Source of the DNA: Bugula neritina | Taxonomy: Eukaryota; Animalia; Bryozoa | DNA length: 64,000 nucleotides | Direction: 5' to 3' | Assembly: GCA_964035545.1 (NCBI GenBank) | Contig: OZ037766.1 | Span: 11,150,722-11,214,721, forward strand | In this document: positions 5,801-37,900 of the stretch, in pieces | How positions within the stretch are numbered: the first letter of the stretch is position 1 | How the letters are laid out: each line of letters starts with the position of its first letter | Translations under genes and position numbers: made by a program | The notes under the pieces: model-generated | Database searches by the model: none | What the model was told of the DNA's origin: nothing | The model's input: the letters and a program-made list of their open reading frames with translations, nothing else

Positions 5801-6462
5801 TACGATTTTTAAAATACTTTAGTATTTTGTGCAAGAGGAGTGATTAAGCAATACTCAGTGCCGGCGTCACGGAGCCTTCAATTTCAACCGGATAAACTAT
5901 AGAGTTATGGGTAACTGTAGCCTTGTAACCAGAAATACTACCACTGGTAATAACTAATAACTCAGTGTGATTAGAAATTTATTTTCATCGAACTCAATAG
6001 CTCAGTGGTTATTTTTATTAGAAAATAGCTATAAATTTCAAGTATAAACTTATTGTTTTATTTAATTATATTAACATTGTGCATTTGCAGCTTTGCTCTA
6101 AATGTATGTTTTATTTTAGTTATTATTTGTAATGCAGGCTAAGAATTATGAAAATTGCTTCAAGTAGCACCAAGTTACTGTTAGTGTTAGAAGTGATTGA
6201 GTGCGGTGGCTTGGGTGTCTCTAGTTTTAAGTTTGGAGTTCGGACGACGAAGTGTATAGTTCTAGAAGTAGATTCTAGAATCTATTCGAATCGAAATTGT
6301 TTTGTTTAAAAATGAATTGCTGAATCATTATGACCTTTTAGTTTTATTATAATTAAATAGTTTTTAATCTAATCTGATCTAATCTAATCTAATCCGTCTA
6401 ATCTCCAATAGTAATTCTGATAGTCTTAAACAGTAGCCTAGAGACATCAGTCATCACGATAT

Positions 6463-6872
6463 TGTTGTGATTTTGTGGATTATAAGAATAGACTAGTAGT
6501 CTGCATGCCAGTTATTGTGATAGAAATAAAGAGTCTTGATTAAAATGAATCTATGAGTATTTATTACTTCTGACTGCTTCGAGCTCCAGTACAAGAATGA
6601 ATTGCTTTGGAAAAACTTCGCACTTATATAGGGGGAAATTCCCGCCACTTAATGAGGGACCGAAACTCGTGCGAACGTCGGAGTTCCGCCGACCGACATC
6701 GGAGGAAGACCTGCCCGATCTCGGGCAGGCCCCTCCGATATCGTGTCTTCGGCCTCCGACTTCGCACGAGTCTCGGTTTACATATAATAATAATAAAAAA
6801 AAAGAAACGAGTGCGAGGGAATATAACTCTAAATAAAACAAGGACATGGTATATTTGCGCGAATCTACAACA
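6463..6872 (-). repeat. 3' LTR (410 bp)
   Basis: Identical to 13916-14325 except G6818 versus A14271. On the - strand there is TATATAAG at 6630-6623 and AATAAA at 6565-6560. Confidence 0.97.
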
Positions 6873-6884
6873 CACACCCCCTAT
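6873..6884 (-). other. Polypurine tract (plus-strand primer)
   Basis: The - strand reads ...ATAGGGGGTGTG immediately abutting the TG of the 3' LTR. Confidence 0.75.
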
Positions 6885-7040
6885 TGGAAAGTATCGCTTT
6901 CCGATACAAAAAAAACAAATATACAAAATAAAAAAAACAATATCTAGGGGTGCACAAGTTTACAAAGAAAAATAAAGAAAATATAAAGGTAATAAAGGTT
7001 TGAGCAGGCTGATTGTCATGAGTAGTGGTAGAGTAGCCTT

Positions 7041-10000
7041 TCAGTTGCGACGGTCACCTCTGCGGCCCTCGAGCCTGTCCAGGCGGCGGCGAACAGCGTG
7101 GAGGTCATCCTCCAGCCGGCGTACCTGCCGGCGCAGCCGGAGAACCTCAGTCTCATGGGGGCATCGTGCTGGCACTGCTGGGGTAGGGGTGGAACCCGGG
7201 ATCCTAGGGTCCTGGCGCCTCCGTCTCTTGTGGCCGGCTACCTGCTGGGCTCTCTCTCCATTCCCGTCGACCCTAGCCAACACAACCCGGAGAGGTCGGG
7301 TGACAGCTGGCTGGGCCGCAGGTGGTGCCTCGTCGTCAGTAGCATCCTGTGTTGGGCGGCATGCCGGAAATCCCTGGGCGAGTGTCGCCCGTTTATGGGG
7401 GTCGCCGATGTGAGGGAGAATCAAGTCCCGGAATTCGGGAAATGTCGCCTCGTCGACAACAAACACCTGACCCGTGTGGTAGCGGGCTATGCGCTGGTGC
7501 CTCAGCACGTAATCTCTTTGAAAAGAGAATTCGCCACACGGGCAGAAGACGTTGGCATAATGTTGGGGCACGTGCACCCGCAGTCGCCTGGTAGTAGTAA
7601 ACCTTTTACTACACTGGCGGCACTTGCGGTTGCCGGCCTCTCCACAGTCCTGCTCTATCCTAGCACGGGTCTCTGCCGTGGTCCAGTGGAGGCGCTCCGT
7701 CAAGATGTGGGGGAGAGCTAGCTGCTGGTAAGGAGGCTCGTCCTTCAACTGAGGGCCCTCACCGGACGGGGAGCCGTCGGTTGGAGGGGGGGTACCTGCT
7801 TCCGGCTGGGTGGTGAGCGTAGGCTCTGGTGCTGGAACCTCGAGCGGGCTGGTAACAGCCGGGTCGGGAACTGTGGTGGCCGGGGAGTCGATACGACTCG
7901 ACCCGACCTCCTCACATTCCATGGCTTCTGCAATAGAAAACAGAGAGCTTGGTGACCTGGCCGTAGGAGTGCCGAATTTCGGCATCTCCTTGTAAGGCAC
8001 TCTTTGACACATGGGTAGGTCAGGTGATAGCCGAAGAGACACCCGTCCAACCTCCTGGTCTAGCAGGTAGTCGTGGACTGGGGACTCTTCTAAATCGTCC
8101 TGACCTTTGTGATCAAAGAACAGCTCATTTTCCCACTGATAGTCGGGTGAAAATGAGTCTAGAGAGCTACTACACTCCGTGAAGGGAGGTTTTAGTAAGC
8201 TAGAAATACCTGATATCGTAGCGAGCTGGGTTTGTTTAACTGTCACAGGCTCCATATCTGTCAAATTTTTCAAATTGAGTTTAAAATAGCGTGCTGTATC
8301 GTTCAAAGTTGAAGTGCAAATGGCCGAGTTTTGATTTTTAATTTTAAAACTCGTGCGATCGCCGATCACGTGACTGGTCAAGTGGTCAATTAAATTAGAC
8401 AACTCCGGGTGTCGGGCCGCCTCCGAATTTCGGTCTCGATTTTCTTGGGTAGTCAGTGTGTTTATGGTTGATCTGAGGTGACAGTCTGAATTCGAGTCCA
8501 GTTGGGGGTAATGATTCGAAGGGTGAAGTTCAGTCATGCACCCCACGTGATAATCAGCCAAATAACCCGGTGGTTTCTTGTCTCTTTTCCCTCTCCCCAG
8601 AGTGAGGTTGGTAGGGTTGCTTGGTTGATGTGGGGTGTCTGGTGGAGGCGGTATATCGTCTGGGACAGGCGTCGGCGGCAAGGGGAGGTCCTCTGGGGCC
8701 GGTGTTAGCGAGGTGGGTGTCTCTGGTTGGTTGGTCTGGCTGGGTAAATCATGGGTGTGTAGAGCGGGTGGCAGGCTCCGTGGGGGGGCGTCGGAGGTGT
8801 CTTGGACTTCTCTGGGGTCACGAACAATTATTTCCCACTCTCGGGGTTGATTCCTCCTCCCACAGGAGATGGGCTGTCGTGCTGGTTCCAGCAGTGGTGG
8901 TGCCTGTCCCGCGGCTTCCGGGCTTCCGTGGTAAGGTTTCAACCGCTGCTCGTTCTGAACAGATATCTGTCCTGAGCGTTCCACACGATATGTATGGTTT
9001 GGTAAAACCTCTACCACGCAATAGGGCCCGACGAACTTAGGCTGTAATTTAGCCGATTGTCCGCGCCGCCTGCGGTAGCTGACCATCCACACCCAGTCTC
9101 CTTCGCGATACAGAGGCGGTTCCTCGGAATCTTCTGTTCGTACCAGCCACTGTTTCTCTCTCAGTGCGTCATGAGCTTTCTTCATGGTTTCGACTAACTT
9201 TCCCACGTACTCATGTACTGGGAATTCTGGGTTAGGAATGTGGTACGCGAGGTGTTCTGGTACCCTGGTTTCTCGGCCCAACATCATCAGATTCGGTGTT
9301 TCCTGTGTGCTGGAGTGGGGGGTGCTTCGGTAGGCTCGCATAATCTGTGGTAGCATGACGTCCCACTCCTCTTGACTCCTTCCCAACAAGAGGCTCCGGA
9401 GAGCATCACCCAACATCCGGTTGTTTCTCTCTACTACTCCGTTCCCTTGGGGGTGGTACGGAGTAGTCCGGCTTTGATTCACCCCCCATACTTGGCAAAG
9501 GTCCTTCAATAGTTGCGACTGAAATTGTGCCCCTTGGTCAGTGTGAATCTGCTCGGGTAGGCCGAAGTAGCAGAACACGTGCTGGTCCAGGACCCGAGCT
9601 ATCGTGGGTGCTGATGCGTCGGGGATAGCCAGGGCGTCTGCCCACCGCGTGAAATGATCTGTTAAGACCAGAATCCAGGAATTCCCCCTCTCTGTCGTGG
9701 GCATTGGTCCCACAAGGTCCACGGCTACGACCTGCCAGGGTCGGCCGGCGTACAGCCGGCGCCGACCCGTGGTTTCGGTGGGGCGCCCGTGTTTGCTGGC
9801 CTGACAGACTTCACAGTGCCGAATTCTCAGTCGCACATCCCTGGTCATCCCGGGCCAATACCATCGCATCTGCAGGCATCTGATGACCTGACTGGCTCCC
9901 GCATGGGCCTGTTTGTGGGTGTCCCAGATGATTTCCCGACGGAGAGCGCGTGGGCATATGACGCGATCCCTTTCTTGTTGCCGGTTGTCTGCTGCGAGTG

Positions 10001-12944
10001 TCATCGTCAGGAGACCGTCTGAACGAATCTGGAGAGAATTCCAGCGGCGGCAGAAGAACTGAAACTCAGCGTCTCCCTGCCGTTGCTGTTCCTCCGAGGG
10101 TCGTCTGCCTTCTCTCTTGGCTCGGAAGATGTCAGCTACTGATCCAGGGAGTGTTTCTTGCAGTCGACACAGCTCCTTGACGTTCTGGTACAGTGTGGGG
10201 TTAGCACGGAGTGCCTGGACGTCGTCTGAGTGGGTTTCAGGCCGAAGATGGCCGTGCTCCCAACGATAGACGTTGCCGTCCCCCAACTGTGCCTCGACGT
10301 CAAGGCGGGCAGGTCCCCCATCACGTCTCTCGATGTGCAGGCATTGCTTGCAGTTCTCTACCGGTCGGCGACTCATGCCATCAGCGTTCCCGTGTTTCTT
10401 GCCGGCACGGTGCTCTATCCGGTAGGAAAACTCAGCAAGAATCTCTAGCCAACGGGCCACCTGACTCGAGGGCTCTGCACGTTTACTCAACCATATCAGT
10501 GATGCATGGTCTGTTCGCAACCGGAACGTTCTTCCATACAGATATGGCCGAAAGTGCTTGACCGCCTTGACTACTGCTAGGAGTTCCTTCCTAGTGGTGC
10601 AGTAGTTTTTCTCGGCGGCCGCGAGAGTCTTGCTGTAGTAAGCCACGACCACCTCACTTCCACCCTGGACTTGAGACAGAACAGCTCCCACACTGTGGTC
10701 GCTGGCGTCGGTGTCCAGGATGTATTCTTTGGCTGGATCAGGATACGCCAGAATCGGCGCCTCCATTAGCCGTTGTTTGAGGTGGTCGAATGCCTGCTGC
10801 TCCTCCTGTGTCCACTGCCACCGGACTCCCTTGGCGGTTAGCCGATTCAAAGGCTGAGCCACCCCTGCAAACCCGGGTACGTACTGCCTGTAGTACCCTA
10901 CCAGGCCCAGGAATGCCCGCAATTCAGAGAGGTCCCGGGGGACGGCCCACTCCTTCACAGCCTGTACCTTCTCCGGGTCGGTAGCGACCCCGTCACGGCC
11001 AACCACATGGCCCAGGTACGTGACTTCTTGCTGTAGGAGTGCACACTTGGAGGGCTTCAACTTCAGTCCAGCAGCCCGGAGTCGGTCAAAGACCTCCCGC
11101 AGACGACTGACATGAGTCGTAAAGTCTGGGGAGATGACAATGACGTCATCCAGATAGATTAGGAGGGTCTTCCAGTGTAACCCACTGAGGACCTGCTCCA
11201 TGAGTCTTTGGAAAGTTGCCGGGGCGGACGTAAGTCCAAACGGCAGTACTTTCCACTTCCAGAGCCCATCGCGAGTAATGAATGCTGCTTTGTCCTGAGC
11301 ATCAGGACTGAGGGGTACTTGCCAGTACCCGCTAAGCAGGTCCAGAGTACTGAAGTACTTGCTACCCGCGAGGGCATCCAGAGACTCATCTATCCGCGGG
11401 AGGGGGTAAGCGTCCTGGATGGTAACGCTGTTGAGTCTGCGGTAGTCCACACAGAACCTCCAGCTACCATCCTTCTTCTTGACCAGGACTACTGGAGAGC
11501 TCCACGCACCGTGGGCAGGCTCAATCAGATCCCGGTCGAGAAGATCTTGCACCTGCCGGCTCACCTCCTTCTCCTTCTCCGGGCCCAGACGTCGGGTTGG
11601 CTGCCTGATGGGAGTGGTGCCAGCTGCCAGGGGTATCTCGTGGGAGATAACCTTAGTCAGCCCCATATCTTCATCACCATGACTGAAGACATCACTGTAC
11701 TCCGCGAGTAGTTGAGCCAGTGTTTGGCGTTCAGTACTACTCGTACAGTTTCCACACGCTCCACTGTACAAGCCAGCCACATGCTCCGGGACTGCTTCTC
11801 GGTGGTTGTGAGGGGGGTTTCCCTGGGTGTCGGTCACTGTTTCCAGTGCCGGACCCACATCCGCCTCATGGATGGAGTGGTACTTCCCCACCAGTGCACC
11901 AGCCGATAATCGGACCGATTCCGCAAAGGGGTTGATGCATTGCACGAGGAGCTCTCTTCGACAGTCCAGCCGATTTAGGCTGTTTGCCAGTTGAATTGCT
12001 CCGTGCGTTCCCTCCACCACCCCCAGTGCGGCGATCTCCTTGCAGTTGACCCTGCATCGGAGAGTAGCCTGGGATCTCCCTGGAATCGTGCAGTCCTGCA
12101 CTACCTGGACTCCGCCCACCAAGGGCCTACCAAACTTGTCCACACAGGCAAGTTCCTTCCCAGCCATCACCACCGCCGACTTCTGGAAATCCATGTGACA
12201 CTGGTGTTTTTCCAGAAAGGGCATTCCCAGAATGGCGTCTTCCTTCAGGTGGCTGACAATGAACGTCTCGTGAATTACTTGATCACGGACTCGTCCAGGT
12301 AGTGTGATAATGCCGTAGAAGGGGATACACGATCCGTCCGCCAACGTACCGTGTGCCCCTTCGTACGGCTCGAGGCTCGCCCGCTCTCGGGCACCAAGGG
12401 TGCCGAAGAGACGCCGACTTAGCAGGTTTGTAGTGCACCCTGTGTCCAGCAGGAAGGTGGCAGCTTTACCCGAAATTTTTCCGGGCAGGAAGTAGCTGCT
12501 TCCATACGGCTGGGTGCTCCTGGGTCGGTCAGTCTCTGGGGGGGACACCTCTTGGGTCCTTACAGCGGGCCTCCTCTTCGTCTTACAGACAACGGGGGTT
12601 TTCTGAGGCTGGGAGGGTAGCTTGGGATACTCTTGCGAGTAAGCTGATTCTTCCTCCACAGCCTCTTCGGGCAACCCCGCGAACCGGTTTTGGAGTGGCC
12701 AGGCCGGAGGATCGGGTAAACCTTGCGGTCTCCGAGATCTCCGAGGTGCCTGCCATCCTGCATCTGGGAGTCCCATCCGGGTCGTAGGTGGCTGGGTTGG
12801 AGAGTCGGGCAGACCTTGGGGTCTCCGACGTCCCCACGCAGCCTCGGCTGGCCTGGAAGAGGCTCCCTGGGTCATTTCTTCCCGGATGGGGTTGGCTGGT
12901 GGCTCACGGTTGGCGGAGGTTACCGCGAGCCCCGGGTGTTTAAA
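7041..12944 (-). CDS. pol: Pol polyprotein (protease, RT, RNase H, integrase) with a long C-terminal extension; probably entered by -1 frameshift from gag
   Basis: Motifs: LLDTGCT (protease), LPFGL and YLDD (RT), DTDASD...KELLA...TDH (RNase H), H..H..CEVC, VDLVGP/TDQGAQF/NGVVER (DDE integrase), KFVGPY. There are no stops over 1985 codons. The ORF-track start at 12998 is GTG, not a credible initiator. Confidence 0.96.
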   Translation of the reverse strand, partial: FKHPGLAVTSANREPPANPIREEMTQGASSRPAEAAWGRRRPQGLPDSPTQPPTTRMGLPDAGWQAPRRSRRPQGLPDPPAWPLQNRFAGLPEEAVEEESAYSQEYPKLPSQPQKTPVVCKTKRRPAVRTQEVSPPETDRPRSTQPYGSSYFLPGKISGKAATFLLDTGCTTNLLSRRLFGTLGARERASLEPYEGAHGTLADGSCIPFYGIITLPGRVRDQVIHETFIVSHLKEDAILGMPFLEKHQCHMDFQKSAVVMAGKELACVDKFGRPLVGGVQVVQDCTIPGRSQATLRCRVNCKEIAALGVVEGTHGAIQLANSLNRLDCRRELLVQCINPFAESVRLSAGALVGKYHSIHEADVGPALETVTDTQGNPPHNHREAVPEHVAGLYSGACGNCTSSTERQTLAQLLAEYSDVFSHGDEDMGLTKVISHEIPLAAGTTPIRQPTRRLGPEKEKEVSRQVQDLLDRDLIEPAHGAWSSPVVLVKKKDGSWRFCVDYRRLNSVTIQDAYPLPRIDESLDALAGSKYFSTLDLLSGYWQVPLSPDAQDKAAFITRDGLWKWKVLPFGLTSAPATFQRLMEQVLSGLHWKTLLIYLDDVIVISPDFTTHVSRLREVFDRLRAAGLKLKPSKCALLQQEVTYLGHVVGRDGVATDPEKVQAVKEWAVPRDLSELRAFLGLVGYYRQYVPGFAGVAQPLNRLTAKGVRWQWTQEEQQAFDHLKQRLMEAPILAYPDPAKEYILDTDASDHSVGAVLSQVQGGSEVVVAYYSKTLAAAEKNYCTTRKELLAVVKAVKHFRPYLYGRTFRLRTDHASLIWLSKRAEPSSQVARWLEILAEFSYRIEHRAGKKHGNADGMSRRPVENCKQCLHIERRDGGPARLDVEAQLGDGNVYRWEHGHLRPETHSDDVQALRANPTLYQNVKELCRLQETLPGSVADIFRAKREGRRPSEEQQRQGDAEFQFFCRRWNSLQIRSDGLLTMTLAADNRQQERDRVICPRALRREIIWDTHKQAHAGASQVIRCLQMRWYWPGMTRDVRLRIRHCEVCQASKHGRPTETTGRRRLYAGRPWQVVAVDLVGPMPTTERGNSWILVLTDHFTRWADALAIPDASAPTIARVLDQHVFCYFGLPEQIHTDQGAQFQSQLLKDLCQVWGVNQSRTTPYHPQGNGVVERNNRMLGDALRSLLLGRSQEEWDVMLPQIMRAYRSTPHSSTQETPNLMMLGRETRVPEHLAYHIPNPEFPVHEYVGKLVETMKKAHDALREKQWLVRTEDSEEPPLYREGDWVWMVSYRRRRGQSAKLQPKFVGPYCVVEVLPNHTYRVERSGQISVQNEQRLKPYHGSPEAAGQAPPLLEPARQPISCGRRNQPREWEIIVRDPREVQDTSDAPPRSLPPALHTHDLPSQTNQPETPTSLTPAPEDLPLPPTPVPDDIPPPPDTPHQPSNPTNLTLGRGKRDKKPPGYLADYHVGCMTELHPSNHYPQLDSNSDCHLRSTINTLTTQENRDRNSEAARHPELSNLIDHLTSHVIGDRTSFKIKNQNSAICTSTLNDTARYFKLNLKNLTDMEPVTVKQTQLATISGISSLLKPPFTECSSSLDSFSPDYQWENELFFDHKGQDDLEESPVHDYLLDQEVGRVSLRLSPDLPMCQRVPYKEMPKFGTPTARSPSSLFSIAEAMECEEVGSSRIDSPATTVPDPAVTSPLEVPAPEPTLTTQPEAGTPPPTDGSPSGEGPQLKDEPPYQQLALPHILTERLHWTTAETRARIEQDCGEAGNRKCRQCSKRFTTTRRLRVHVPQHYANVFCPCGEFSFQRDYVLRHQRIARYHTGQVFVVDEATFPEFRDLILPHIGDPHKRATLAQGFPACRPTQDATDDEAPPAAQPAVTRPLRVVLARVDGNGERAQQVAGHKRRRRQDPRIPGSTPTPAVPARCPHETEVLRLRRQVRRLEDDLHAVRRRLDRLEGRRGDRRN
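12901..12944 (-). promoter_or_regulatory. Programmed -1 ribosomal frameshift signal (U UUA AAC + 6-nt spacer + 10-bp hairpin)
   Basis: The gag frame reads CCT TTA AAC ACC CGG GGC TCG CGG TAA and the -1 frame is pol (..FKHPGLAV..). Stem GGCUCGCGGU/ACCGUGAGCC lies at 12931-12901. Confidence 0.85.
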
Positions 12945-13843
12945 GGCATCCTTCTTTCGTGAGGGCATTGCCTTCGTACATGTCCCCTGGCACCACACCC
13001 CCAGCAGGTGAGGTGGGTAGTACCGGCTGGTTCACCCCGGGGTCGGGGGTTTCGTTTATCAGCCTGTTCTCTCTGCATCTGTTTCATCTCTGCCTGCAAT
13101 CCCTTTACCATGTCCATCAGCATGGTCATCTGGTCAGGTGACGAAGTAGTAGCAGCCGCCACGGCCTGTGGGTTTGGCTGATCCGGCTTAGCGACTTCGG
13201 GTCGTTCCTCAATCTGACAAGCGGTGAAATCCGCACATTGAGGTCCCTCCACTTGGTAGGAAGCCTTGCCCAGGGCTAAGGCTTCCTCTATAGTGGTGAC
13301 CTTGGCTGCCAAGTAATAACGCTGTAGTCCAGGGTTATTGATTGTGTGGAAGAAGGCTTCATACACAGCACCTCTTTGTGCTGCCGGTGTGTCGTCGCTA
13401 TGGGCTACTGGTACTAGTGCCTCAATAGCGTTCGCATGGTCTTGGAGTGAGGTCTTCCGGTCTCGGCGTATGGTGCGCAATCTGTCCCTGGCGGCGCGGG
13501 CGGTTAGCCCGAAACGCGACCTGAGGGCCTGAAAGATGTGCGCTGTATTGGGTCCCAGAGCATAACTCTTTGCCTGACCTGTCAGACAGGTACGGAGGTG
13601 AAGAAGGCGCACCGGTGCCGGCCATTCGGCGAGGGTGGCTACCTCTTCAAACTCCCTGATGAATTGCTCTATGTCCCCATCGCCTCCGAAAATCGGGGGC
13701 CTCAGGCGATACCTGTCTCCAGGTGCTGCCTGCCCGGCCTTGCTGACCTCCCGGAGGGCTGCGATGAGAGTCTCCATGGTGAGACGGTCCCCTTCTCCTT
13801 CTTCTTCTCCTTCTACCATGACTTCTTCTTCTTCGTCCCCCAT
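12920..13843 (-). CDS. gag: Gag (307 aa) with CCHC zinc knuckle
   Basis: ATG lies about 50 nt after the PBS. Capsid-like segment PPIFGGDGDIEQFIREFE...LRTCLTGQA and nucleocapsid knuckle CWGCGARGHVRRQC. Confidence 0.95.
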   Translation of the reverse strand: MGDEEEEVMVEGEEEGEGDRLTMETLIAALREVSKAGQAAPGDRYRLRPPIFGGDGDIEQFIREFEEVATLAEWPAPVRLLHLRTCLTGQAKSYALGPNTAHIFQALRSRFGLTARAARDRLRTIRRDRKTSLQDHANAIEALVPVAHSDDTPAAQRGAVYEAFFHTINNPGLQRYYLAAKVTTIEEALALGKASYQVEGPQCADFTACQIEERPEVAKPDQPNPQAVAAATTSSPDQMTMLMDMVKGLQAEMKQMQREQADKRNPRPRGEPAGTTHLTCWGCGARGHVRRQCPHERRMPLNTRGSR

Positions 13844-13895
13844 TGTGCTGTTCTTTCTTTCTCTCTAATGGCTGCTTGTCGTACTAGTCTATTCT

Positions 13896-13914
13896 AATCC
13901 CACCGCTGCCACCA
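13896..13914 (-). other. Primer binding site complementary to tRNA-Leu
   Basis: The - strand reads TGGTGGCAGCGGTGGGATT 1 nt inside the 5' LTR, complementary to the ...AAUCCCACCGCUGCCACCA 3' end of metazoan tRNA-Leu(AAG/TAG type), recalled from memory. Confidence 0.9.
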
Positions 13915-13915
13915 A

Positions 13916-14325
13916 TGTTGTGATTTTGTGGATTATAAGAATAGACTAGTAGTCTGCATGCCAGTTATTGTGATAGAAATAAAGAGTCTTGATTAAAATG
14001 AATCTATGAGTATTTATTACTTCTGACTGCTTCGAGCTCCAGTACAAGAATGAATTGCTTTGGAAAAACTTCGCACTTATATAGGGGGAAATTCCCGCCA
14101 CTTAATGAGGGACCGAAACTCGTGCGAACGTCGGAGTTCCGCCGACCGACATCGGAGGAAGACCTGCCCGATCTCGGGCAGGCCCCTCCGATATCGTGTC
14201 TTCGGCCTCCGACTTCGCACGAGTCTCGGTTTACATATAATAATAATAAAAAAAAAGAAACGAGTGCGAGAGAATATAACTCTAAATAAAACAAGGACAT
14301 GGTATATTTGCGCGAATCTACAACA
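13916..14325 (-). repeat. 5' LTR (410 bp)
   Basis: Direct repeat of 6463-6872 with one mismatch. Confidence 0.97.
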
Positions 14326-25000: not shown

Positions 25001-27753
25001 TATTAGTATTACTATCATTATAACAACTATAACTATTATTAGTATTACTATTACTATTAGTATTAGTATTAGCAAATTAGTAGTAAAAAATGAGTAGAGC
25101 TCAACATATACAATCTAGCTTACTATAAAAGTAGAAGTAGAACTTTTAAAACTATCATCTGCATCATTATCAGAACTATGAGTAATACTAGTAGTTGTAC
25201 TAATAGTAATACTAATTATTAATACTAATAGTATCACTATGAGTATGAGACTTGGGCTGGCAGTGATTATCAGTATCAGCATCGTCATAGTCAAAAGTTA
25301 CAAGAATTAGAAGCCATATTCATATTCATAGTAATAGTCAATCATTGATTGAGTTAATGTCATAGTGATACTCATACTCATAATTAATTTATACGATACT
25401 CATACTCATAGTGATAGTGATACTTCACCGTGAATTTAATAATAATTTTAATTTAATATAAATAATAAAATATTATTATTAATATTATCATTGTTGCTAA
25501 TATTATGTCTTACTCTTAGTCTAACAGCAGCTCTATGAAGAAGTTAAACATAACTGATAAAACAAATTTCAAAAATAATACTGCAACAATCAATATAATG
25601 TATATCAAATTCAATATGCTAGCAACCTAATTTTCAGCTCACTTCATTAACTTTCCGTGCAGTATTGTGAATTGTGATGAAATAAATTTATTAATGGTGA
25701 CCTTGACATCTTCGTCCAAATGCCTTTCACGTCAAGCCCCGAACCAATTTGTAAAAATTTTGGATTTTTTACTTTTGATTATTTTTTACGAAAAGAGCTT
25801 CAAAATAAATTTAAAAAAAAGTGAGCTGTTGTCCACATGAAAAGAAATATATGAGCTAATTTTCTAAATTCAGGAAGTTACCAGAGGGTCACAATATTTT
25901 TTTAAAAAAATCTTTATTTTCACGACAAGCTCTATATATTAATATAGAAAAAAAGAAGACAACTCTTTTTTCAGATTTTTCATGTGCCACGGTCACGTCA
26001 ATATCAGTGCTATTAACACATATATTTTAATTCATTTTTTCTGGTATATTGAGTTGAGATTTTTTGTATATATTTTGTGAATGCTACTAAAAAAGTATGA
26101 TCTTTTAATTAACAGTAATTGATTTTATCAAAATAACCTGGATGCTTACGATGTTTAAGGAAATAACAAAAAGTTGTCAAATAGCAAACCAAACAATATA
26201 GTTTATGCCATTCTATAATATTTCTAAAGAGTAGTATTTATACAATCTATTATATAACATACTTCATCAGTTAAATCACACCTGCAAATATTTCATAATT
26301 GAAATTGAAATTAAGAAAATATATATGAAAAACTTTTAGAACTAGTTGCTTTTAGAAAAAAGACAATAAAGAAAAATTAACCTAAACTTGCATACAACAC
26401 AATGTGTTTCATTTACTACATAGTAGCATTGCTAGGCTGGGTTAAAGGTTTTTATTAGAACTAATTTTTTAATATCTTAGAATTAAAGCATATGAAAGAC
26501 ATTGAATTAACTGAAATCACTTTTTGCTAACTTGAAAAAAGATAATCAAAACTTGTAACAAAGGAATCTTTACAAGGTTTGAGTTACAGATTCCATTACA
26601 TTTTAGCAAGAGTACACAACTTGAACAAAATCATATCATTTCATGGTAAAATATACAAAACTGCTTCTCTGCTTATATAGTTACTGAGTCTTATCTAATT
26701 CTAATTTAAGAGCTTGTAATTTTCACTATCAATTACTAAAAATTGCACTTGATAATAAACTAAATAATACACTTAAATATTTTTGCAAGTTCTTGTTTAT
26801 GTAATTCTTAAATAAGAAGACTTCGGAAAATTTTTCAACATTTTACTAAAAAACTCATGAGTGGGCAACTGTGCGGTGACTATCAATATGCGAATTAAAG
26901 TGTTTAACTACCGAATAATTGACTTGTCCCAAATTATTGTGATTGTCAAATGATTTTTTCCTAAGTTAAACTGTTGCACAAGATTAACATTGTACATCGA
27001 GTCAGGAAAAATAACTGTAACTGCGTCTCACCAATTCTCCACCCGGGAGATTGACACAAGATAGAAGTAAGACGGAGTCCAACACTGTGTGGGCATCTAC
27101 TTTCCAACGCTTGTTGCCAACTTCTGTAATTCGGCCAATCACCACATCTCCAACTTCACCAATATACCTGAGGAGTACACACAGTATTGAAAGTACACTG
27201 CAGAGCAGCAACAAAGCGATGAACAATTCTGCTAGTTGATTCTGCACAAAAAACTGTGAGTTTAAAAAAAACCTATGCTTTTACAAACTGCATGCGAACA
27301 CAAGTAGTTAAAAAAGGACTGTTAAATTAACTGTTTTGACTATACTAACCTGGTTTTTAAAGGACGAACACATATTAATTTGTTCACCCTTTCAACACAT
27401 CCAGCAACAGACGCTAAAATTTTTCCTTCATCAACATCAAAATATGTGCCATGACCTCTGAAATTAATACAATTTTTATTGATAAGTGACACGTTTCAAC
27501 AACATAATTAATAAATTTATAGACAAACAATTTTTCACAAACTGAAGATAGCATCTAAACAACAACATCTAAACAACAATTAAATTTACAGAGAAGAATA
27601 TTAATATACCAATAGGTAGCAACAATTGCTAGACCTCATATAGCCCGAGTCCTTTGAAATCAAATCTCCGGGATTAACCTGGTGCATTGTTTTATCAGAA
27701 GGTAGAACAGCTCTAGATTTTCTGTTGGCAGCTAACCGTATATTGAACTCCAT
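19032..27753 (-). CDS. EXOSC2: Exosome complex component RRP4, 7 coding exons (27753-27635, 27457-27350, 27167-27032, 20740-20606, 20126-19953, 19456-19328, 19109-19032), 292 aa
   Basis: MRGHGTY...ASVAGCVERVNKLICVRPLKTRYIGEVGDVVIGRITEV...RWKVD...NLPGGELRKRSEEDE...LHTRSLKYGKLGQGILV...ILGNNGYIW; exon phases are consistent. Confidence 0.96.
20850..26000. pseudogene. Probable old transposon-derived insertion with decayed exon-like coding segments in EXOSC2 intron 3; boundaries unresolved
   Basis: The intron is 6.3 kb versus 0.2-0.5 kb for the gene's other introns. There are CpG-richer patches at ~21030-21230 and ~25700-26000, and - strand AG..GT-bounded segments (~24280-24060, ~23865-23400) with long reading stretches broken by stops. 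Confidence 0.45.
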
Positions 27754-29150
27754 TGTATCCTACCTAGACTGCTGTAAACAAAAATTGACAAAAATCTTGA
27801 TTAACCAATGCATTATATGTAGAATAATAAAAAAAGACCAAAACTTATTAATTATATTGGCATTACTAATTAAATTGAAATTGGCAGCCTGTTTTTACTT
27901 ACATCATATCAGTCTAAATGTGACAGCATTTTGATGGCTGCAAACCAATCAGTTTAGTAAAGGGCAAAAGTATAGACTGTGGTAGAACTTTTAACATTGT
28001 TTTAAATTTCAATTCAAAAGTTGTTATTGGCAATCATTTTTCTAGCAGTTCCTAATTCTTATCTAATGATGATCAGCTCTACTAACATTACATATGTGAC
28101 ATTAAGTTTAGCATAGTGACACACATGCTCTTATTGAATAAACTTTTTTATTGAATTCAATATTTATTACTTATATTGTTCAATTAGTATTACTATTTAT
28201 CTTATAGTATAAGTTATGAAATAGTAAGACTAAGAGCCTAAGAGTGAGAGGTAAGACTAAGAGGTAATTCAATTTGATAATGATAGGCAACATTCATTTT
28301 CAATTAAGATTATTGGTAATGATATGAAAAATAAATAGTATAATAATCATTATAATCACCGTTGAGCATAATGATAATGATAACTCTAATTAAAACATTA
28401 TTAATCACACCACAAATTAAAATAACAACTATAAGTATATAGTATTAGTATATAGTCATAATTATCATGGTTATCATTATGATTATTTATTAATAATAAT
28501 TATAATATTATAATTATATCAGCATCTTCATTTTGTTTTAAAAATAAACAGAATTATTATTATATTATTTTAATGTTATTTAAACTTTAAACATTATAAT
28601 AATTTAAATTATCATAAATAATAAATATGAATATCATTATCAAATATCAATATCATAATTATTAATCTAAATTTTGAAAATATACGTTTACAGTTTAATT
28701 GTTCAATTATTTACAAAGCAAAGGCTAGCATAATTCATTTGATCAATTTTTTAAAAATAATATTAATAACATTTTCATTTTTATTTTAAATGTTTAGATG
28801 TAATAGCAGCATGGGGAAAACCCGCCAGTGCCATGGCTGCCATGGTTGTAGACTGATATTTTATAGGTTGCATACTGCATACTAGTTACAATACTTATAT
28901 GTAAACAGACTGCCCTGTGGTTATTATGGAGGTTTTCCGAACAAACAAATGTGCTTTCACTCAGTCTATTCACGTTTATTCTCTCGCGGTGAAATTTCGA
29001 TCAGCCATAATTATTGCCTTTGATTATTTGGAGCTATCACCGTAACCTTTCTAATTGATGAACTTTGGGAAATCAAGTAAATACAACCTATTAAATTTAA
29101 ACACCATCCCAATTCAGATTTCTCAGACATCAAGGGACCGTTATTTTGAA

Positions 29151-32100
29151 ATGAGTGACCGAGAGGTATGCATCCTGAACCTGTAAAACTAGAACATCAT
29201 CATCATGATCAAGTTCAACACGAAGTGAACATCAACATGTCCTCGAGTGATCATGATTTTTTTTAACTCAAATTGAAATTAAAATTTAATTTCATAGTAA
29301 TAGTCGTGTTGTTATTAATATATTTACCATTTTTTGTTAATTTGATTGTCAAAAATATTACTAATCTTAGGTAAAAGTTTAAGGAATTGAAAGTTTAAAT
29401 AAAAATCAAAATGTCAGTATGAGTATCAGTATGACTGTATGACTATGAGTATGAATATCACAACGACTCACGAGTCATGTTGATGTTCTGTGTTCATGTT
29501 GACAATTGTCATTGAAATTTAAAGTTATAGTTATGCTCGTAGGGCACTACACGAGCAATTGAAGTTGTTAAATTAATGGTATTAATTATGATAATCATTG
29601 TTATCACTCTTAGTTTTATTGTTTAAATTATACAATTTGAATTATATCTATTTTAAATTCGTATTTCACTGTTTTAAATTTGGCATTGGCTGTGCATGAT
29701 GTTACTGTTAGTGTGGCATTTCAAATTGGTATCTTCAATTGACAGCCTGAGTGTGAGTTTGACTTTGAATTTTTGCAGTGAACTGGTATCAATATGAATA
29801 TAAGAGTCAGTATGACATTGGACTTGGTGTTTTTTGTTTGTTATAATAACCTAATATAAATAAGTGATTAGGCTAACAGTAACAGACACACTCACCGCAA
29901 GTAATTAACTTTTGCAATAGTTATCAATAATAATTACATAATTTATTACAGATTAACTCGATCAAAAGTGTAAAATCTGAGCTTTGTTGATAATGACATT
30001 TTCAAACTTGAAAACAAATTTCAATGTATAAAGTCAAAGATAATTTTGGTTTTGCAAAGGCTCACTCATGCAAGCCCAATCAATTATAGATAATTGCATT
30101 TCAAGGACTCTTGCATCTAAAGTTATAAAAAATACATAGAAGTACGGTCTAAGTTTTATAGAGTTTTTTAAATTTTTTCAGGATGTTCATTTCCATTGAA
30201 AAAATTTCAAAAAGCTTTTTTCTAAAAAATTCCCTTTTCAAAAACAAACAAATAGCTACAGCAATTTATCCTGTTCACGTCGTAGATCAAATAAAACATA
30301 TAAATATCATGGTAATTGTTTTTTTCATGTGGCTGATCTCTTTCCAGTAATAGCTTGAGTGTATCTAGATTCTAGTATCATAACTGTCAACTATAATGAA
30401 TACCAAAATTGTATAAGTTATCATTTATTTGTAGTTTAAAGACTTTAGTATATCTCTTCTCATTGAATCAGTGCGTTTCTTTATACATTTATATTGTGTG
30501 TTTACTTGAACAAAGTTTCCAAAACAACAAACCTAGAAGTTTTTGTCTATTTAATAAATATTGCGCTTCAATAAATTTGCTGATTTATATTGTCAATGTT
30601 AACTTTATAGGACCGCCGATCTAACAGTCGCTCAAGGACGCGATCCAGGTCTAGAAAACGATCGGTTAGTCGTGGTGCGAGATCATACAGTAGATCTAGG
30701 TATAAATGTTATACTTTTTAATTTGTTAATCCATTTTTCTTTGAATGCTTTTCATGTGTCTTTGTTACTTTTTGTGTCCTTTGTTATTATCACAAAAGAT
30801 AAAAGTAGGCTGGCTTTAAACAAGAGGGTATATTCTTGGATATAATAAAAGGTTGAAAGTGTCAACTCAAATTACTGATACATAAATAATAAGTAATTGT
30901 TTTGCCCTTTCATGTCAGAGACTTTATTTTTGTAATACACCCAATCTTCAATGTTAGATGAATAGACGGAGTAAATTGTTTAAATTTTCCTAATATACCA
31001 ATAGTCCTATACTAGTCATTTAAAGAATTTTATCACTTGAAATATTTATGTGAATTTCAATTGGTTTTCTTATTTACAGATCACGAGATCGAAAGTCAAG
31101 AAGCAGATCTCGAAGGAGAAGGTAGACATACGTTTTGTATAACTTATCACTCTGTTGTGTTAATGACTCAAGGATGCAATCCAATTTTTATGCTGTTTAA
31201 TTTGTTTGAAAACACATATTTTAAATTTTGCTTATGCTTGCTACAAAGTTTTATGACAGATAATGTGTGCTAATACATTGGATTTTGCCAGGTTTTGTAA
31301 CTTTCTGTAAACAAAACGTTGGCTTGTTATTTCCAATCTTAAACTATATTGTGATATGTCATGTAAACCTTTGTGGTAGCATTGAGTGCGTTGGAATGAG
31401 TATGACTACTAAGTCGGAGATGTTGTATTTGAAGCTACTCAAGGAGCAGAAGCAGGAGTGCAGACAGGGGTGGCCGTGGAGGAAGACGTCCCAGAGATCG
31501 ATCTCACTCACCCATGTCTAGCAGACGTCGCCACCGAGGTAACCGGGATGACCCCGATCCTAATCGATGTGTCGGTGTGTTTGGCCTGAGTTTGGATACC
31601 CGAGAAAGGGAAATTGAGGTGAGGCTTACATGCAGCCATATTCAGAATTTATTATTCTCTAATACTCTCTCAGAATTTTATAAAACTTTCAACTTTTTAT
31701 GTTTATATGTTAATTATTTGAGATGTTGTTTTATTTGTATTTACAATATTTTGCATGGGTAATGTATTTGTAGGAGTTCTTTGGAAAATATGGCCGTATT
31801 GCAAACTGTCAACTAGTTCATGATAGACATTCTGGTAGATCAAGAGGCTTTGCTTTTGTTCATTTCGAAGATGTTGAGGATGCTATTGAGGTACAGCATG
31901 AGTTCCGGGATTTGAATAATTTATTTTGAGCTTTCATAAAAAAAACTTATTTCTTGTTCAGATTATATTAATGTTATGTATACAATGACTGTTGGCTGGT
32001 AGGCTAAAGAGAATAGTGCAGGAGTGGAGATTGATGGCAAGCCAATCCGAGTGGACTACTCTGTGACTGAGCGAGCTCACACACCTACGCCTGGAGTTTA

Positions 32101-32702
32101 CTTGGGTAAACCAACCACAAGGTAAACCTTTTAGTGTGTGAAGTTTTGTCTTATTTTTATACGAGAAGCTCTGTTGTTTTATTTTTGTAGAATTGTGCTT
32201 TCTGTATTCTAATTTTGTGAACTTTGAACTTGAACACAGTTTAAATTGAGCATGAATTTAAAACTAGGCCAAGCCGAGGATATGGTGGACGCTACGGAGG
32301 AGGAGGAGGAGGAGGAGGGAGTTATGGTGGATATGGAGGTCGATACAGCGGTGGTTACGGTCGAAGAAGGTCACCATCACCATACCGCAGGAGGTCTTAC
32401 GATAGACGGTCTCCCTCACCGTACAGAAGTCGAAGGTATTCAAGGTCAAGGAGCCGATCCTATTCCCCTAGTATGTATCATTTTGTCTAGCATAGAGGCT
32501 TTTTTGTGACCAATGTGTTACTAACAGCTTGCAGTAAATTAAGATCCAAGTTTATCGTGTTTGTTTTACTGTTGATATTTGATATCTAGTTTGATTTATT
32601 TGTTGAGAGCTAGGCTACTTTATAGGCTGATCTAAATCTTAATCAGTTTTCTACTTTCAGAACTTCTATCTCATATTTGTATTTTTTGCAGGGCGTTATT
32701 AG
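29151..32702 (+). CDS. TRA2B: Transformer-2 homolog (RS-RRM-RS), 8 coding exons (29151-29165, 30611-30699, 31080-31121, 31435-31618, 31774-31890, 32003-32121, 32268-32470, 32692-32702), 259 aa
   Basis: [34 protein letters not shown]1 [29 protein letters not shown], a Gly tract, and the C-terminus RSRSYSPRRY*. Assignment to the A or B paralogue is nominal for an invertebrate. Confidence 0.96.
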
Positions 32703-33070
32703 ACAATGCAAATACGCACTATTAGTAGTGGCTGCAGTCTGAAGCTTGCAAATTTTCTTGGGGGGAAAAAGAAAGTATTAGCGTGCCAGAAAATCTCTCC
32801 TATATGTAGTGAGAGGTATTGCATCATCATATAACAGTTACATTGTCAACTCAACTCCCTATTTAGTATTCGAAAGTTTCACAAAATGTAAATTTTTTTC
32901 TAATAAATGGCCACTTGTTGATCATTTATATTTCATGTATTCCTACATTGTGTAAATTTCTTTGCTCTTTCTCTTATGATCAATACATTTTTATCATTCT
33001 TTTTCTGTAAATATATGTTTGCCTGAACAACCAACCTACTATGCTGACTGTATCTATTCTCTTCTCTTAG

Positions 33071-33266
33071 AGAGAAAGAAGCTCTCGTAGAAGTAAGAAA
33101 ACTTATGGAAGAATTTATTGAATATGTTGAAGAGAGAAATAATGAATATGAAATGAAGAGAGAAAATATTGAATAGAAAATGAAGACTGAAAAATATATA
33201 TGTGGTGAATTTGATAGTTGAATTGACCACATTTAGGGAGGAAGTTATTTTGGAAATTATTTTAAG
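33071..33266 (+). promoter_or_regulatory. Candidate GAA-rich non-coding (3'UTR) alternative exon of TRA2
   Basis: Acceptor tattctcttctcttag followed by about 17 GAA motifs in ~125 nt. Candidate upstream donor at 32816, own weak donor at 33267, downstream acceptor at 33411. Confidence 0.6.
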
Positions 33267-34946
33267 GTGCTTGTTTTAATGTGGGCTTTGTAAGGGGAAG
33301 GGACAATCCAATCATTAAATAACACTCAAGGTTGTGGCCAGTGCAGTGTAGATGTTGTGTTATATTATACCTAATTTGTTACTAACATCTACTTCTGTGA
33401 TGTTTTAATAGGTACACTCATGATGCGAGAGATGAGAAGGTTGCATGTCACATCGACAGGTTCAGAAATAGCCTTAAATGAAGCTGTCAAATTTAACTAG
33501 TTTAATCTGTTTCAAATACCCTGATAGTTACTTCCTAAGTTTCTTAATCCTTTAAAAATTTATCTTAGAAAAAATTCATCATGAATGAACTTATTGTGGT
33601 TGGGGGAGTTTGCTGGTTATAGATAAGCGGTCATGGTCATGGTTCAACGTTGCAGACTTCAAATTTAAGCTAATTTTCTTTTTCATCTATGAAAGATAAA
33701 AAAGCACACTTCTAGAGTTATTAAGTGAACACTGCAAGAAAATGATGTGATGACAAAAATGGTGTTTCGGAGTTACTCTGCCCCTTATAGATGGGTAAGG
33801 TAATCTATCATCCGCTGAGTGCTGACAATATTGTGTGGGGCCAGTTATGCTGAAGTATTGACTGATGAACAAATCAAAATAACTCCCAATACTCTGCTTG
33901 AATGAGGCTCCTCTCAATTTTAAGTTTGCACAATGATATATGAATTACCATCACTTGCCTCCATTCTCCCTATTTCTAAGCAAATAACCAAAAGAGCCTT
34001 CCCCTAGTGGCCCTTATATCTTATATGGGATGGTAAGTAAAAATGTCAGCAGTAAATATTAACTATATTTTGACTGCAGTTGAAGAGCAGAGAAAATGAA
34101 GTATTTCATGATGCTAATGGATCATCCAGTGGACATTGGCATAGACGATGCATTTTGTGAACAATTTTCTGTATCTGATGCTGTAGTTCAGAATATGCAT
34201 AAATTTTTATTGTTTGTATATATTGAAATCAATAAAAATTAGTTGCAAGTCCAAGTATCTAAAGTAAATTTGCTGAAATTAAAATCATTAGAGCGCATAT
34301 CATAAAAAATAAGTTCTAAAAATCATACTTGCAACTCTTCTCCATGAAACTCGAAAGATAACTGCAGTGTGTTCTATTGAAGGGTGAACTTCATCCTATT
34401 GTAACAGTTAGTAGTCTCAATTGAACAAAGTGAAATTGGTTGTGGAACTAATCCTGCAGTGCTAAGTTTTTTTATATTCTAAGCAAATCTCACAGCTGAA
34501 AATAAAATATGGCCATTTTGCTAAAGTTGTTGATACTGCAGAATGTCAAAGATAACAAAATGCTGCTGTGCAAGTTGCAGTAACCATTCTAACTTAATGT
34601 GTTGGGCTTACAAGCTACTTATCTATGGGGCTTACTGAAAATTAAAAACTTAACACGTACCTTCTGTCGAGACCTGGAAGAAATGCAAAGCCTTTGCATA
34701 TATAACATAAAGTTTTGCAAGGGTTTTAACCCTCCAAGCGGAAATTTTCAGCATGGCTATAGAACTATATATAAAAATATATTTCATTCATGATCATCAG
34801 TAATATAAATTAGGACATGTTTATAAATAAAAAAGTATTTCTTTACATTATAAATTGAAATAATTATAGATAAACATAATTTGTTTCATATATATATAGC
34901 ATATAAACCATCTATAGAGTATTTTGAATTAAATTTTGTAAAATAT

Positions 34947-37900
34947 TTATATATAAACTTTGCTGAAATACTCAGTTACAAATTCATCAATGATTGCTTG
35001 GTCAGGAATTTTTCCGATCATACCATACATAGCTGCCACCTCTCCAGGTTTAGCTGTTTTACCCTGAAAAATAGAAGTTATAACATCAATGCTTTAAAAT
35101 TAATTTATTGCTGCTTGATATTGCCATACTAAATTTATTGAGACAATAATATTATGATAGTCAAATTTGAGAACACACATCTTTTCATGTTTAACATTAT
35201 GCAAGCATAGCTGAAATTGTTCTCAAGTACCCATCGACCAATTCTAGTGGTATCATTTTTGCCTAAAAACCTAGCTGTGAATGAAAAAAATTGATATGGC
35301 CCAGTTCAAATTTTGCATGAAGAGAAAATTAAAATTCAATGACTAAATAGGCTTTGGATATTTTTTCTCACCCAACTCTCCTTGCATGCAGCTTCTAAAT
35401 CAGAAATTAATTTGCTCTCTTGTCCTATATGTTGAGGTAAAATCGAGAAATGTAGACTGTCTGGTAGCTGCTGTCTTTCCATTCTCCATCCTTCAAGGTC
35501 ACATGTATACATATTATGCAGATACTTTTATACATCAACACCAAAATAAAAATATAAATATTTCGTAATTTGGTACTTTTGCATTATTAGAGGTTAGGAC
35601 TTTTTGTCTTTACCAAGCATAAATATATGAGCACCTCAAAATAAATTCCATTTTATACGAAAGGGCAAAATTGTTGTATGAATTTAATATGCAACATTAA
35701 ATGACATCCAATGATGTTCTTGTCTTCCCCTCCCCCATTGCATAATTTATTTCAACATTTGAGAAATAGTCTCAAATTAAAACACTACTATGCCACACTG
35801 CTTCATACACTGGTGAAAGTATACAAATAGATTGGAGTATCTTAAAGCAACCCACGCAATGGTAGTACAGCAATGCTGCATATTCAGCATTAGGTCTACT
35901 GATTTAAACCTTAACCATTTCTCTTGCAGATGTCATTAAATCATACTCGTCAACAAAATGTACAATACATTAATTTAGAAAAAAAGCCAAAAATATTCAT
36001 GTCTATTTGTACTGAGCATAATGTTGAACCATGTAAGCTAATAGGATATTCGCTTAATATCTTGTAAGTTGCAGTAGTCTCTGCAAGCTCCATACTAGAT
36101 AGCTTACGAAAATGTAAATATAAAATGACACATTAGTATAAATTAAGAAGACTTCACAATTGTGGCATTAGTAAGATATTTTAGGTAGTTAAAATTTGTG
36201 TTGAGTGTTATAAAAAATTTTTAAATCAACAAACCATGACCTTCAACTCATGTGATGATGGAATGTTCAATCCCTACTCAGGAATGTTATTTAAAAATTC
36301 AAAATGGCTTACCTTTTTTCTCCATTTCATCTGCCACCACCAGGATTTTGAGTTTGTTGGAGTTAGATTGAAGAGCAAAGCAGTTCATGATAGGCTTTCC
36401 CACAACTTCCAATCCCTAATAATAATAATTATATTAATATAATCCCAACAGCCATAAAAATGTATACTAAAAAGATATTTCTCACACTATATAACTGAGC
36501 ACATCACAGATATAACAGTGGTGCTGCAAATGAGCCGCTATAGTCTATACTAACAATACCATCATTTTACTATTTAGTTTACACATGATCAAAGCTTGTG
36601 TCTAATTCATCTTAACAAAATAAAAGGTACTAAATGGAGTGTAATGGTGTGAAAATAGAGGTCGAAAACTTCTGCACTTGTACAATCCAACAAGCAGTTG
36701 TCTGCTCATTGGTAACTATTTGTTCACATGATTAAAAGAAGTTATGTCTAAAATGATGCAAAAATTCCTGGTGGAAAGAGGCTTTATGTATACAAAAGAA
36801 AAAATCTCTCCTCTGGCAACCTGTGACCTGAGAGCTCTTCCTAACACCATCAATGACCCTGCCATTGATGGTGTCAGGGACGTGTATGCTAGGTCACTGA
36901 ACCAGTGACCTAGCATACACGTCTGATCTAACCATCACACCGCAATAACTCAAAGTTTTTAGATAAATTGAAAACTGATGTTTAATAATTGGCTCTTTAA
37001 ATTTATGTTTCTGTTTATTCATTATGATTACGTCTCTTTAATTTGTATAATTTGGTACACCAAAGAAATTTGAGGTGGAAATTACCATAATGGTTTATAA
37101 ATTTACTTTTGAAAAAACATTTGAATAAGATTTTTTGAGCAAAAGGATTATTGTTTCACATAACTATTCAAGTTTAATTTTGACTGACTACTCACACAGG
37201 CCTGCCCTACAGTACACGAATGACAGCATGCGCAGCCCTTACTTACCTGCAGACTCGATAGATACTTACTTGAATATTGGTAGCACCTTCCATCAAAAGC
37301 TGTGTAGTCTCTTGTAACTTCTTCGCCGTTTTCATATAGCCATCTTGGCCTAGATGTTTCAGGGTGACCCAAGCAGCTGCCATGGTGCTACCTACAAACC
37401 ATTAGTTCCAATTATTAGCTTCATTGATTAAAATTTGTAAGTAGAATTTACTTCATTTCTGATCAATCAAAACTTACCACTTCTAGTTCCAGCCATTGAA
37501 GTAGAACCAAAGAGTCCACCAGGCCAAGCTGTATAAGAAAACAACTGATGCTTCCTTATGTCTTCATTTTTGTATATCACAGCGCTAGCACCCTGTAAAA
37601 ACAAGTTTCAATTTATAAACTGTGGTGACAGCTTTTTGATTTAATAAAATATTTACTTCAAAATCAATGTCATTCAAGCATTGACATTAGCAGCACCAAC
37701 ACTTTAGGACAAGAAATTGACTAACTGACAGCACAACGCAAGTACCTTGGGTGTGTATCCAAACTTGTGTAAATCTGCAGATATGGATGTCACACCTTTA
37801 CACCGAAAGTCAAAGCATGGAATGTTCATACCCAGCTTTTCCAGCCTAAAAATAAAATAATACAATTCAATTCTGCCACAGCTTTCAACAGTTATATATC

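Follow-up and report, generated by a model that had tools for sequence, protein, structure and literature searches.

TDP-43 and hnRNP A1/A2B1 are reportedly autoregulated by splicing within the 3'UTR. Their 3'UTR intron is coupled to poly(A) choice or NMD (PMC8091538). With regard to SRSF2/SC35, an optional, retained intron is located after the natural stop, and the terminal 3' splice site is activated from a conserved last exon that carries several enhancer sites recognised by the encoded protein; the enhancer lies within a long stem-loop, and both binding and NMD have been demonstrated (PMC2831310). Vertebrate Tra2 feedback relies on poison exons, which are essential for male fertility in the mouse (PMC11791180). 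These exons, TRA2B exon 2 and its TRA2A counterpart, are cassettes near the 5' end that bring in premature stops, and they exhibit noncoding GAA/AGAA arrays and a conservation above that of coding exons (PMC3240583, PMC11791180, PMC12469348, PMC8091538). The RRM of human Tra2-beta reads AGAA (PMC3045587), and the protein activates exons that carry arrays of its sites, among them poison exon 2 of its own gene and the Tra2a poison exon (PMC3240583). In Drosophila, the Tra2 level controls the splicing of an intron of its own pre-mRNA, M1, whose removal is repressed by Tra2 in the male germline (PMC1669769).

The window, i.e. the whole stretch of 64,000 nucleotides of Bugula neritina DNA analysed here, contains on its + strand, from about 29027, a gene that we identify from its predicted protein as the bryozoan TRA2. 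It comprises eight exons and an open frame of 259 codons ending with the stop TAG at 32700-32702 (+ strand). All seven coding introns exhibit GT..AG ends, and each is bridged by RNA-type contigs.

29027..29165, + strand: exon 1, 5'UTR and ATG at 29151 (RNA contigs 29027/29038-29163 joined to exon 2; frame)
30611..30699, + strand: exon 2, RS1 (joints in X1, X12, X4; GT/AG ends)
31080..31121, + strand: exon 3, RS1 (RNA contigs; frame and splice ends)
31435..31618, + strand: exon 4, end of RS1 and start of the RRM (RNA contigs; 43-aa piece 100% identical to P0001)
31774..31890, + strand: exon 5, RRM (RNA contigs; frame and splice ends)
32003..32121, + strand: exon 6, end of the RRM and linker (RNA contigs; frame and splice ends)
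32268..32470, + strand: exon 7, Gly-rich linker and RS2 (RNA contigs; frame and splice ends)
32692..32815, + strand: exon 8, final codons, stop and 113 nt of 3'UTR up to an optional donor (joint 32470->32692)

The predicted protein exhibits the architecture of the family, with one RRM (RRM_1) flanked by two RS regions and an atypical RNP2, GVFGL, and its closest PDB matches are human Tra2-beta RRMs. The exon 4 piece of 43 residues is identical in P0001, TRA2B of Bugula neritina; over the full length, the two proteins differ by one substitution and by a Gly linker that is 6 aa longer in the window protein. The shorter linker of P0001 corresponds to 18 nt that are absent from exon 7 in runs X1 and X4. 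The original prediction had named the gene TRA2, and the RS-RRM-RS layout, the Tra2-beta matches and the near-identity with P0001 bear this out.

The residues by which Tra2-beta reads G and A, namely R111, F123, F163, R190, D192, T196 and R198, are kept in the bryozoan RRM (residue list and numbering from PMC3045587). Among the 19 AGAA-reading positions of human Tra2-beta, 12 are identical in the alignment. As the others include R188P, Y165H, S148Q and K197E, next to three conservative changes, the RNA specificity of bryozoan Tra2 may have shifted from the human one.

TRA2 is flanked by two genes of the - strand, RRP4 upstream and sphingosine-1-phosphate lyase downstream. RRP4 and TRA2 form a head-to-head pair with about 1.4 kb between them (27700-29151). 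In the region of about 34200-34950, candidate poly(A) signals are found at 34231 (+, TRA2) and 34206 (-, the convergent lyase gene), and the 3' ends of the two genes may overlap. Behind 34360, an identical 84-nt loose end is present in three runs. Within TRA2 itself, the exon 4 acceptor (31415-31434) exhibits an unusual GAAG and a poor pyrimidine tract and is nonetheless used in three runs. An X1 contig covering 30818-31106, most of intron 2 into exon 3, has a depth of 23 versus about 850-1200 in the neighbouring spliced contigs, and possibly reflects retention of intron 2, pre-mRNA or DNA.

Downstream of the stop, the following features are relevant.

32816..33070, + strand: optional intron of 255 nt, GT..AG, spliced (joint in X12, X11) and retained (X12, X4, X2, X11)
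32902..32907, + strand: AATAAA within the intron, AGTAAA in the RNA lineage; candidate proximal poly(A) signal (sequence)
32970..33224, + strand: 255 nt with zero differences between the window and the RNA-lineage contigs, covering the 3' end of the intron and the GAA block
33044..33070, + strand: branch-point-like CTGAC (A at 33047), pyrimidine tract and AG acceptor (sequence)
33071..33195, + strand: GAA-rich block at the start of the last exon (motif count), candidate Tra2-bound splicing enhancer
33267..33411, + strand: second intron of the original prediction, unsupported (no joint in five covering runs)
33071..34275, assigned to the + strand: distal 3' region with RNA cover, in pieces to 33886 and at 34088-34275 (run contigs)

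The optional intron begins with the donor GAG/GTATTG (GT at 32816-32817), 113 nt past the stop, and ends with a pyrimidine tract and an AG at 33069-33070; the CTGAC at 33044 is located 27 nt upstream of the last exon. The original prediction gave the stop, both splice sites, their distances and the GAA count, and all of these agree with the sequence.

Eight sequencing runs were mapped, seven of them presumed to be RNA-type and one DNA-like (X14); the RNA runs come from a lineage that is about 95% like the window. The joint 32815->33071 is used at exactly the predicted sites in two of the seven RNA-type runs, X12 and X11, which belong to different studies and represent two of the four runs that cover the intron. 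The retained form is observed in all four (X12, X4, X2 and X11). X4 and X2 exhibit this form only, and the spliced and retained forms coexist within X12 and within X11. X14 is unbroken across the intron without differences from the window, of which it is possibly the source. TRA2 is not covered in X7 and X8, and in X1 the cover is interrupted at 32880-33093 without a joint, so neither case was counted as evidence.

In X11, the junction contig agrees at 58 of 58 letters. Contigs across the junction are short, with 28 (+2) letters on the short side versus the tool's bar of 31, and their ends are common to the retained-intron contig, a pattern that we infer to be that of an assembly bubble. The joint could also represent a genomic deletion in the RNA lineage. 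As the ends are GT..AG, a branch point and a pyrimidine tract are present and both forms occur in one run, splicing is far likelier. Transcripts are thus spliced downstream of the stop in X12 and X11, and RNA cover extends well beyond 33070, with a candidate AATAAA at 34231 (+) in the distal 3' region.

Upstream of the acceptor the original prediction holds; downstream of the GAA block it is not supported. It described a poison exon flanked by a second junction, 33266->33412. The letters of the weak donor at 33267 and of the acceptor at 33411 are present, but their use as splice sites is not observed: the junction is absent in all five covering runs (X1, X12, X4, X2 and X11), and the last exon begins with the GAA block in each of the two isoforms seen. 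Because this second junction is absent from the covering runs, the layout shown is that of an optional terminal intron followed by a last exon rich in enhancer motifs, rather than that of a cassette poison exon. Of the features that define the vertebrate cassettes, neither junctions on both sides with a skipped form (rare forms can be missed by contigs) nor a location upstream of the normal stop with a premature stop was found, the block being located 369 nt past the stop; the locus therefore falls outside the vertebrate TRA2 poison-cassette class.

A cassette exon at 33071-33266, with a fully spliced form that escapes observation because of its rapid destruction, is very unlikely. Donor-like and acceptor-like sites do exist for it, rare variants are dropped from contigs, and among the loci of other animals discussed below L018 exhibits a GAA block between acceptor-like and donor-like sites and L037 a donor-like site after its block. 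Nevertheless, 33266->33412 is found in none of the five covering runs, whereas the first junction, itself past the NMD distance, is visible; no skipping joint 32815->33412 was found; and the supposed second intron has accumulated nine differences from the RNA lineage in its 145 nt (eight substitutions and one indel).

With regard to the GAA block, 33071-33195 contains 17 GAA in 125 nt (8 AGAA and 8 TGAA, with a single GAAGAA), the first of them 3 nt past the acceptor. This is the highest 125-nt count in the window on both strands, the runner-up being an acidic coding stretch with 13. Dinucleotide shuffles reached 17 GAA in 0 of 2000 cases for the 3' region, and shuffles of the whole window did so in 0 of 100; with the block itself shuffled at the dinucleotide level, 17 of 5000 did. 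No such block is found at the 5' end, where introns 1-7 exhibit at most 7 GAA per 125 nt, and no Rfam match was obtained in 29000-35000. It is a matter of speculation whether Pro188 and His165 of the RRM are tied to the even mix of AGAA and TGAA. Elsewhere in the window, 6001-14000 forms 8 kb of 48-57% GC against a background of 30% GC, and the second-highest GAA peak, the acidic reading frame near 13793 (-), lies inside it.

The GAA triplets could be Glu codons of an alternative coding last exon, which, joined to exon 6, would replace RS2 with 35 residues, most of them acidic. The phase of exon 6 matches, 11 of the 17 GAA share one frame (P=0.024), the blocks of L066 and L032 are within open frames of 112-113 aa, and the last three exons vary among the tra2 isoforms of crayfish (PMC7363937). 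This reading is highly improbable, given that no joint 32121->33071 or 32470->33071 is present in the three runs with cover, that the observed donor is past the stop, and that the block exhibits zero changes although silent ones would be tolerable. In addition, the frame bias reaches P<0.05 in 0 of 13 other blocks and the extension has no Pfam match.

The original prediction had named conservation of the block in related species as a check, and the block is conserved in the RNA lineage. Across 32786-33520, the comparison, which involves one pair of close lineages, gives 24 substitutions and five indels, none of them inside 32970-33224. A difference-free gap of this length arose in 16 of 200000 uniform placements, and in 291 of 200000 when clustered changes were merged. 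For comparison, five coding exons exhibit 22 differences in 697 nt (about 3%), and the sequence just downstream of the conserved stretch 17 in 296. When the GAA block was fixed beforehand, its 0 differences in 125 nt gave P=0.025 versus coding and P=0.002 versus downstream sequence. The GAA/AGAA array is thus conserved above background, as in vertebrate poison exons. Folding of 32970-33224 is no better than that of shuffles (z 0.71).

These figures also bear on the possibility that the splicing is cryptic and incidental, arising in an A/G-rich 3'UTR without serving regulation. The regulatory reading does draw on sequence and contigs, and conservation was measured between two closely related lineages. 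An incidental origin is nevertheless scarcely plausible in view of a conservation above that of coding exons and of a GAA enrichment that beats all 3'-region shuffles and recurs across phyla.

For this recurrence, metagenome contigs were scanned, and at least 510 relatives were matched. The best 80 of these, mostly spliced transcripts, were used and fell into 55 clusters, of which 35 had at least 300 nt of usable 3'UTR. The 20 left out comprised 16 with a UTR below 300 nt, three with a second tra2 coding stretch past the stop and one with a broken frame; for L051 and L071, in which the last coding intron is retained, cluster mates were counted instead. A GAA cluster was considered significant when its best 125-nt count was reached by at most 5 of 500 shuffles. 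Among these invertebrate 3'UTRs from the best 80 of at least 510 relatives, 14 of 35 exhibit a significant GAA cluster (12 of 21 at 500 nt or more and 2 of 14 below 500), and many of the 21 without one are short. In the same 35 UTRs, GAA is the first of the 64 triplets (median 1, TTC 1), and AAG and AGA, which overlap with it, come next; the comparison covered 3'UTRs of TRA2 only.

The carriers were placed by quick trees of 100-110 columns. Four fall beside Hydra (SH-aLRT 93-95) and two beside the springtail Allacma (97), and three are nearest to annelid/nemertean proteins (71-77% identity, weak support). Three more form one clade, and the remaining two are arthropod-like rows without placement in the tree. 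The three-carrier clade is taken as copepods, partly on the basis of a motif in its sister clade that we take to be a spliced leader.

Many of the blocks in other species begin directly after a pyrimidine tract and an AG, often AAG/G. In a strict test, which is weak, an acceptor-like site precedes the block in 5 of 11 cases versus 2.5 expected (P=0.017); with a looser definition of the block, chosen after the first result had been seen, this rises to 7 of 16 versus 3.1 expected (P=0.0003). In 14 of 18 UTRs, GAA is also more frequent behind strong acceptor-like sites (P=0.02), a behaviour shared by none of five control triplets, and in L018 and L047 two GAA blocks are each preceded by an acceptor-like site. 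These tests give modest support to the idea that splicing into the blocks may also occur in other species. No spliced and retained pair was found within any 3'UTR by all-against-all blastn of the best 80 of at least 510 loci; the retained introns that it detected either belong to 5' regions or correspond to the last coding intron. As similar clusters are found behind TRA2 stops in several invertebrate groups, a GAA-cluster switch in this position is likely to be widespread among invertebrates, judging from the 3'UTR sequences.

The scan also revealed other features of tra2 loci. The last coding intron is retained in some transcripts, altering the C-terminus (L071 versus L076, L051 versus L048). 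L027, L042, L056 and L008, probable copepods, exhibit two tra2 coding stretches in tandem, separated by a few-hundred-nt spacer ending in an acceptor-like site; these are either paralogues read through as an operon or chimeric assemblies. L053, L048, L024, L004, L034, L001, L015 and L061 form one tra2 clade with long, stop-containing 5' inserts; in L053 (1-760), 634 nt are absent from L049 and L052, and some inserts of the clade carry GAA just upstream of the start codon, with at most 12 per 125 nt (L061). In this clade, which mostly lacks a 3' block, regulation may have moved to the 5' end.

Based on the two isoforms and the anatomy of the splice sites, together with the enriched and conserved GAA block and its recurrence across invertebrates, we consider it probable that bryozoan TRA2 is under negative feedback by Tra2, exerted by splicing in the 3'UTR followed by NMD. 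An excess of Tra2 would bind the GAA cluster in the last exon and promote the 32815->33071 splice. The spliced mRNA, with its junction 113 nt past the stop, would be removed by NMD, which would lower Tra2 output. The productive form would be the intron-retaining mRNA, or an mRNA ended at the intronic AATAAA.

The NMD step has points on both sides. The distance exceeds the limit of 50-55 nt, as the original prediction had anticipated, and a junction at least 50 nt past the stop can trigger NMD, a mode judged ancient in a review (PMC6173133). Among Drosophila NMD targets, 3'UTR introns are not enriched (PMC3962487), and a gastropod paper mentions NMD only as a possible cause (PMC12277549). No demonstration of junction-dependent NMD in bryozoans was found in the literature examined. 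Contig depth, a crude measure, is 117.5 for the spliced versus 106.5 for the retained form in X12, and 38.3 versus 49 in X11. Such similar depths, with no sign of depletion, are unlike those of a strongly degraded isoform, which counts against NMD.

The same Tra2-responsive splice could therefore act without NMD, through competition with intronic poly(A), a retained form that is the unproductive one and stays in the nucleus, or a change in the stability or translation of the 3'UTR. The apparent abundance of the spliced form, the AATAAA at 32902 inside the intron and the precedent of TDP-43 favour this. In other animals, AATAAA/ATTAAA is found upstream of the block in 7 of 16 loci, and 3 of 80 contigs (the best 80 of at least 510) have poly(A) 221-395 nt past the stop; two of these three were tested, and neither exhibits a significant cluster. 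We nevertheless hold it to be rather unlikely, as the intronic signal is AGTAAA in the RNA lineage, contigs pass through it in all four covering runs, and the 113-nt distance fits the NMD rule.

The GAA motif does not single out Tra2, since the consensus of SRSF1 is similar (PMC3240583). Another purine-binding SR-type protein could thus read the block, which would make this cross-regulation rather than autoregulation, and the R188P and Y165H changes in the RRM are in line with such a reader. This is quite unlikely, because the core G/A contacts are kept in the bryozoan RRM and the motif recurs past TRA2 stops across phyla, as the first of 64 triplets (best 80 of at least 510).

Compared with the described systems, feedback through the terminal intron most resembles that of SRSF2/SC35, at the sequence level only: an optional intron after the natural stop, a junction more than 50-55 nt beyond it, and a downstream exon with conserved motifs of the kind that the encoded protein would recognise. 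In contrast to SC35, another gene and motif are involved, binding and NMD are predicted here, and 32970-33224 exhibits no unusual fold, whereas the SC35 enhancer is within a stem-loop (PMC2831310). The vertebrate poison exons share the gene family, the array and its conservation, but the bryozoan array is located past the natural stop. As with Drosophila M1, the Tra2 level would control an intron of its own transcript, with activation of a 3'UTR splice instead of repression (PMC1669769). The intron holds a candidate AATAAA, likewise recalling the poly(A) coupling of TDP-43 and hnRNP A1/A2B1, which are hnRNP-type proteins with other motifs (PMC8091538).

No GAA-rich 3'UTR splice element of tra2 was found in the literature searched (titles and abstract starts, with few subscription journals); the isoform may already be present in genome annotations. 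A terminal-intron layout at the 3' end, present in several invertebrate phyla, would be a third layout of Tra2 feedback, beside the vertebrate 5' poison exons and fly M1. It would illustrate the relocation of one regulatory logic inside a single gene. It would also widen the view of unproductive SR-gene splicing as old yet flexible, put forward in a paper whose available portion does not mention tra2 (PMC4379411). The TRA2 3'UTR intron would also provide a natural reporter for junction-dependent NMD in spiralians and cnidarians, and the switch may account for some crustacean tra2 isoforms with differing 3' ends, as in crayfish (PMC7363937).

More tentatively, a GAA-rich, splice-activated element behind the stop could be the ancestral limiter of Tra2 in animals, predating the cnidarian-bilaterian split; we regard this as possible but doubtful. 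If true, hydrozoan-like cnidarians, bryozoans, annelid-like spiralians, springtails and copepods have retained this element, and the ultraconserved 5' poison exons of vertebrates and the M1 intron of flies would be later replacements.
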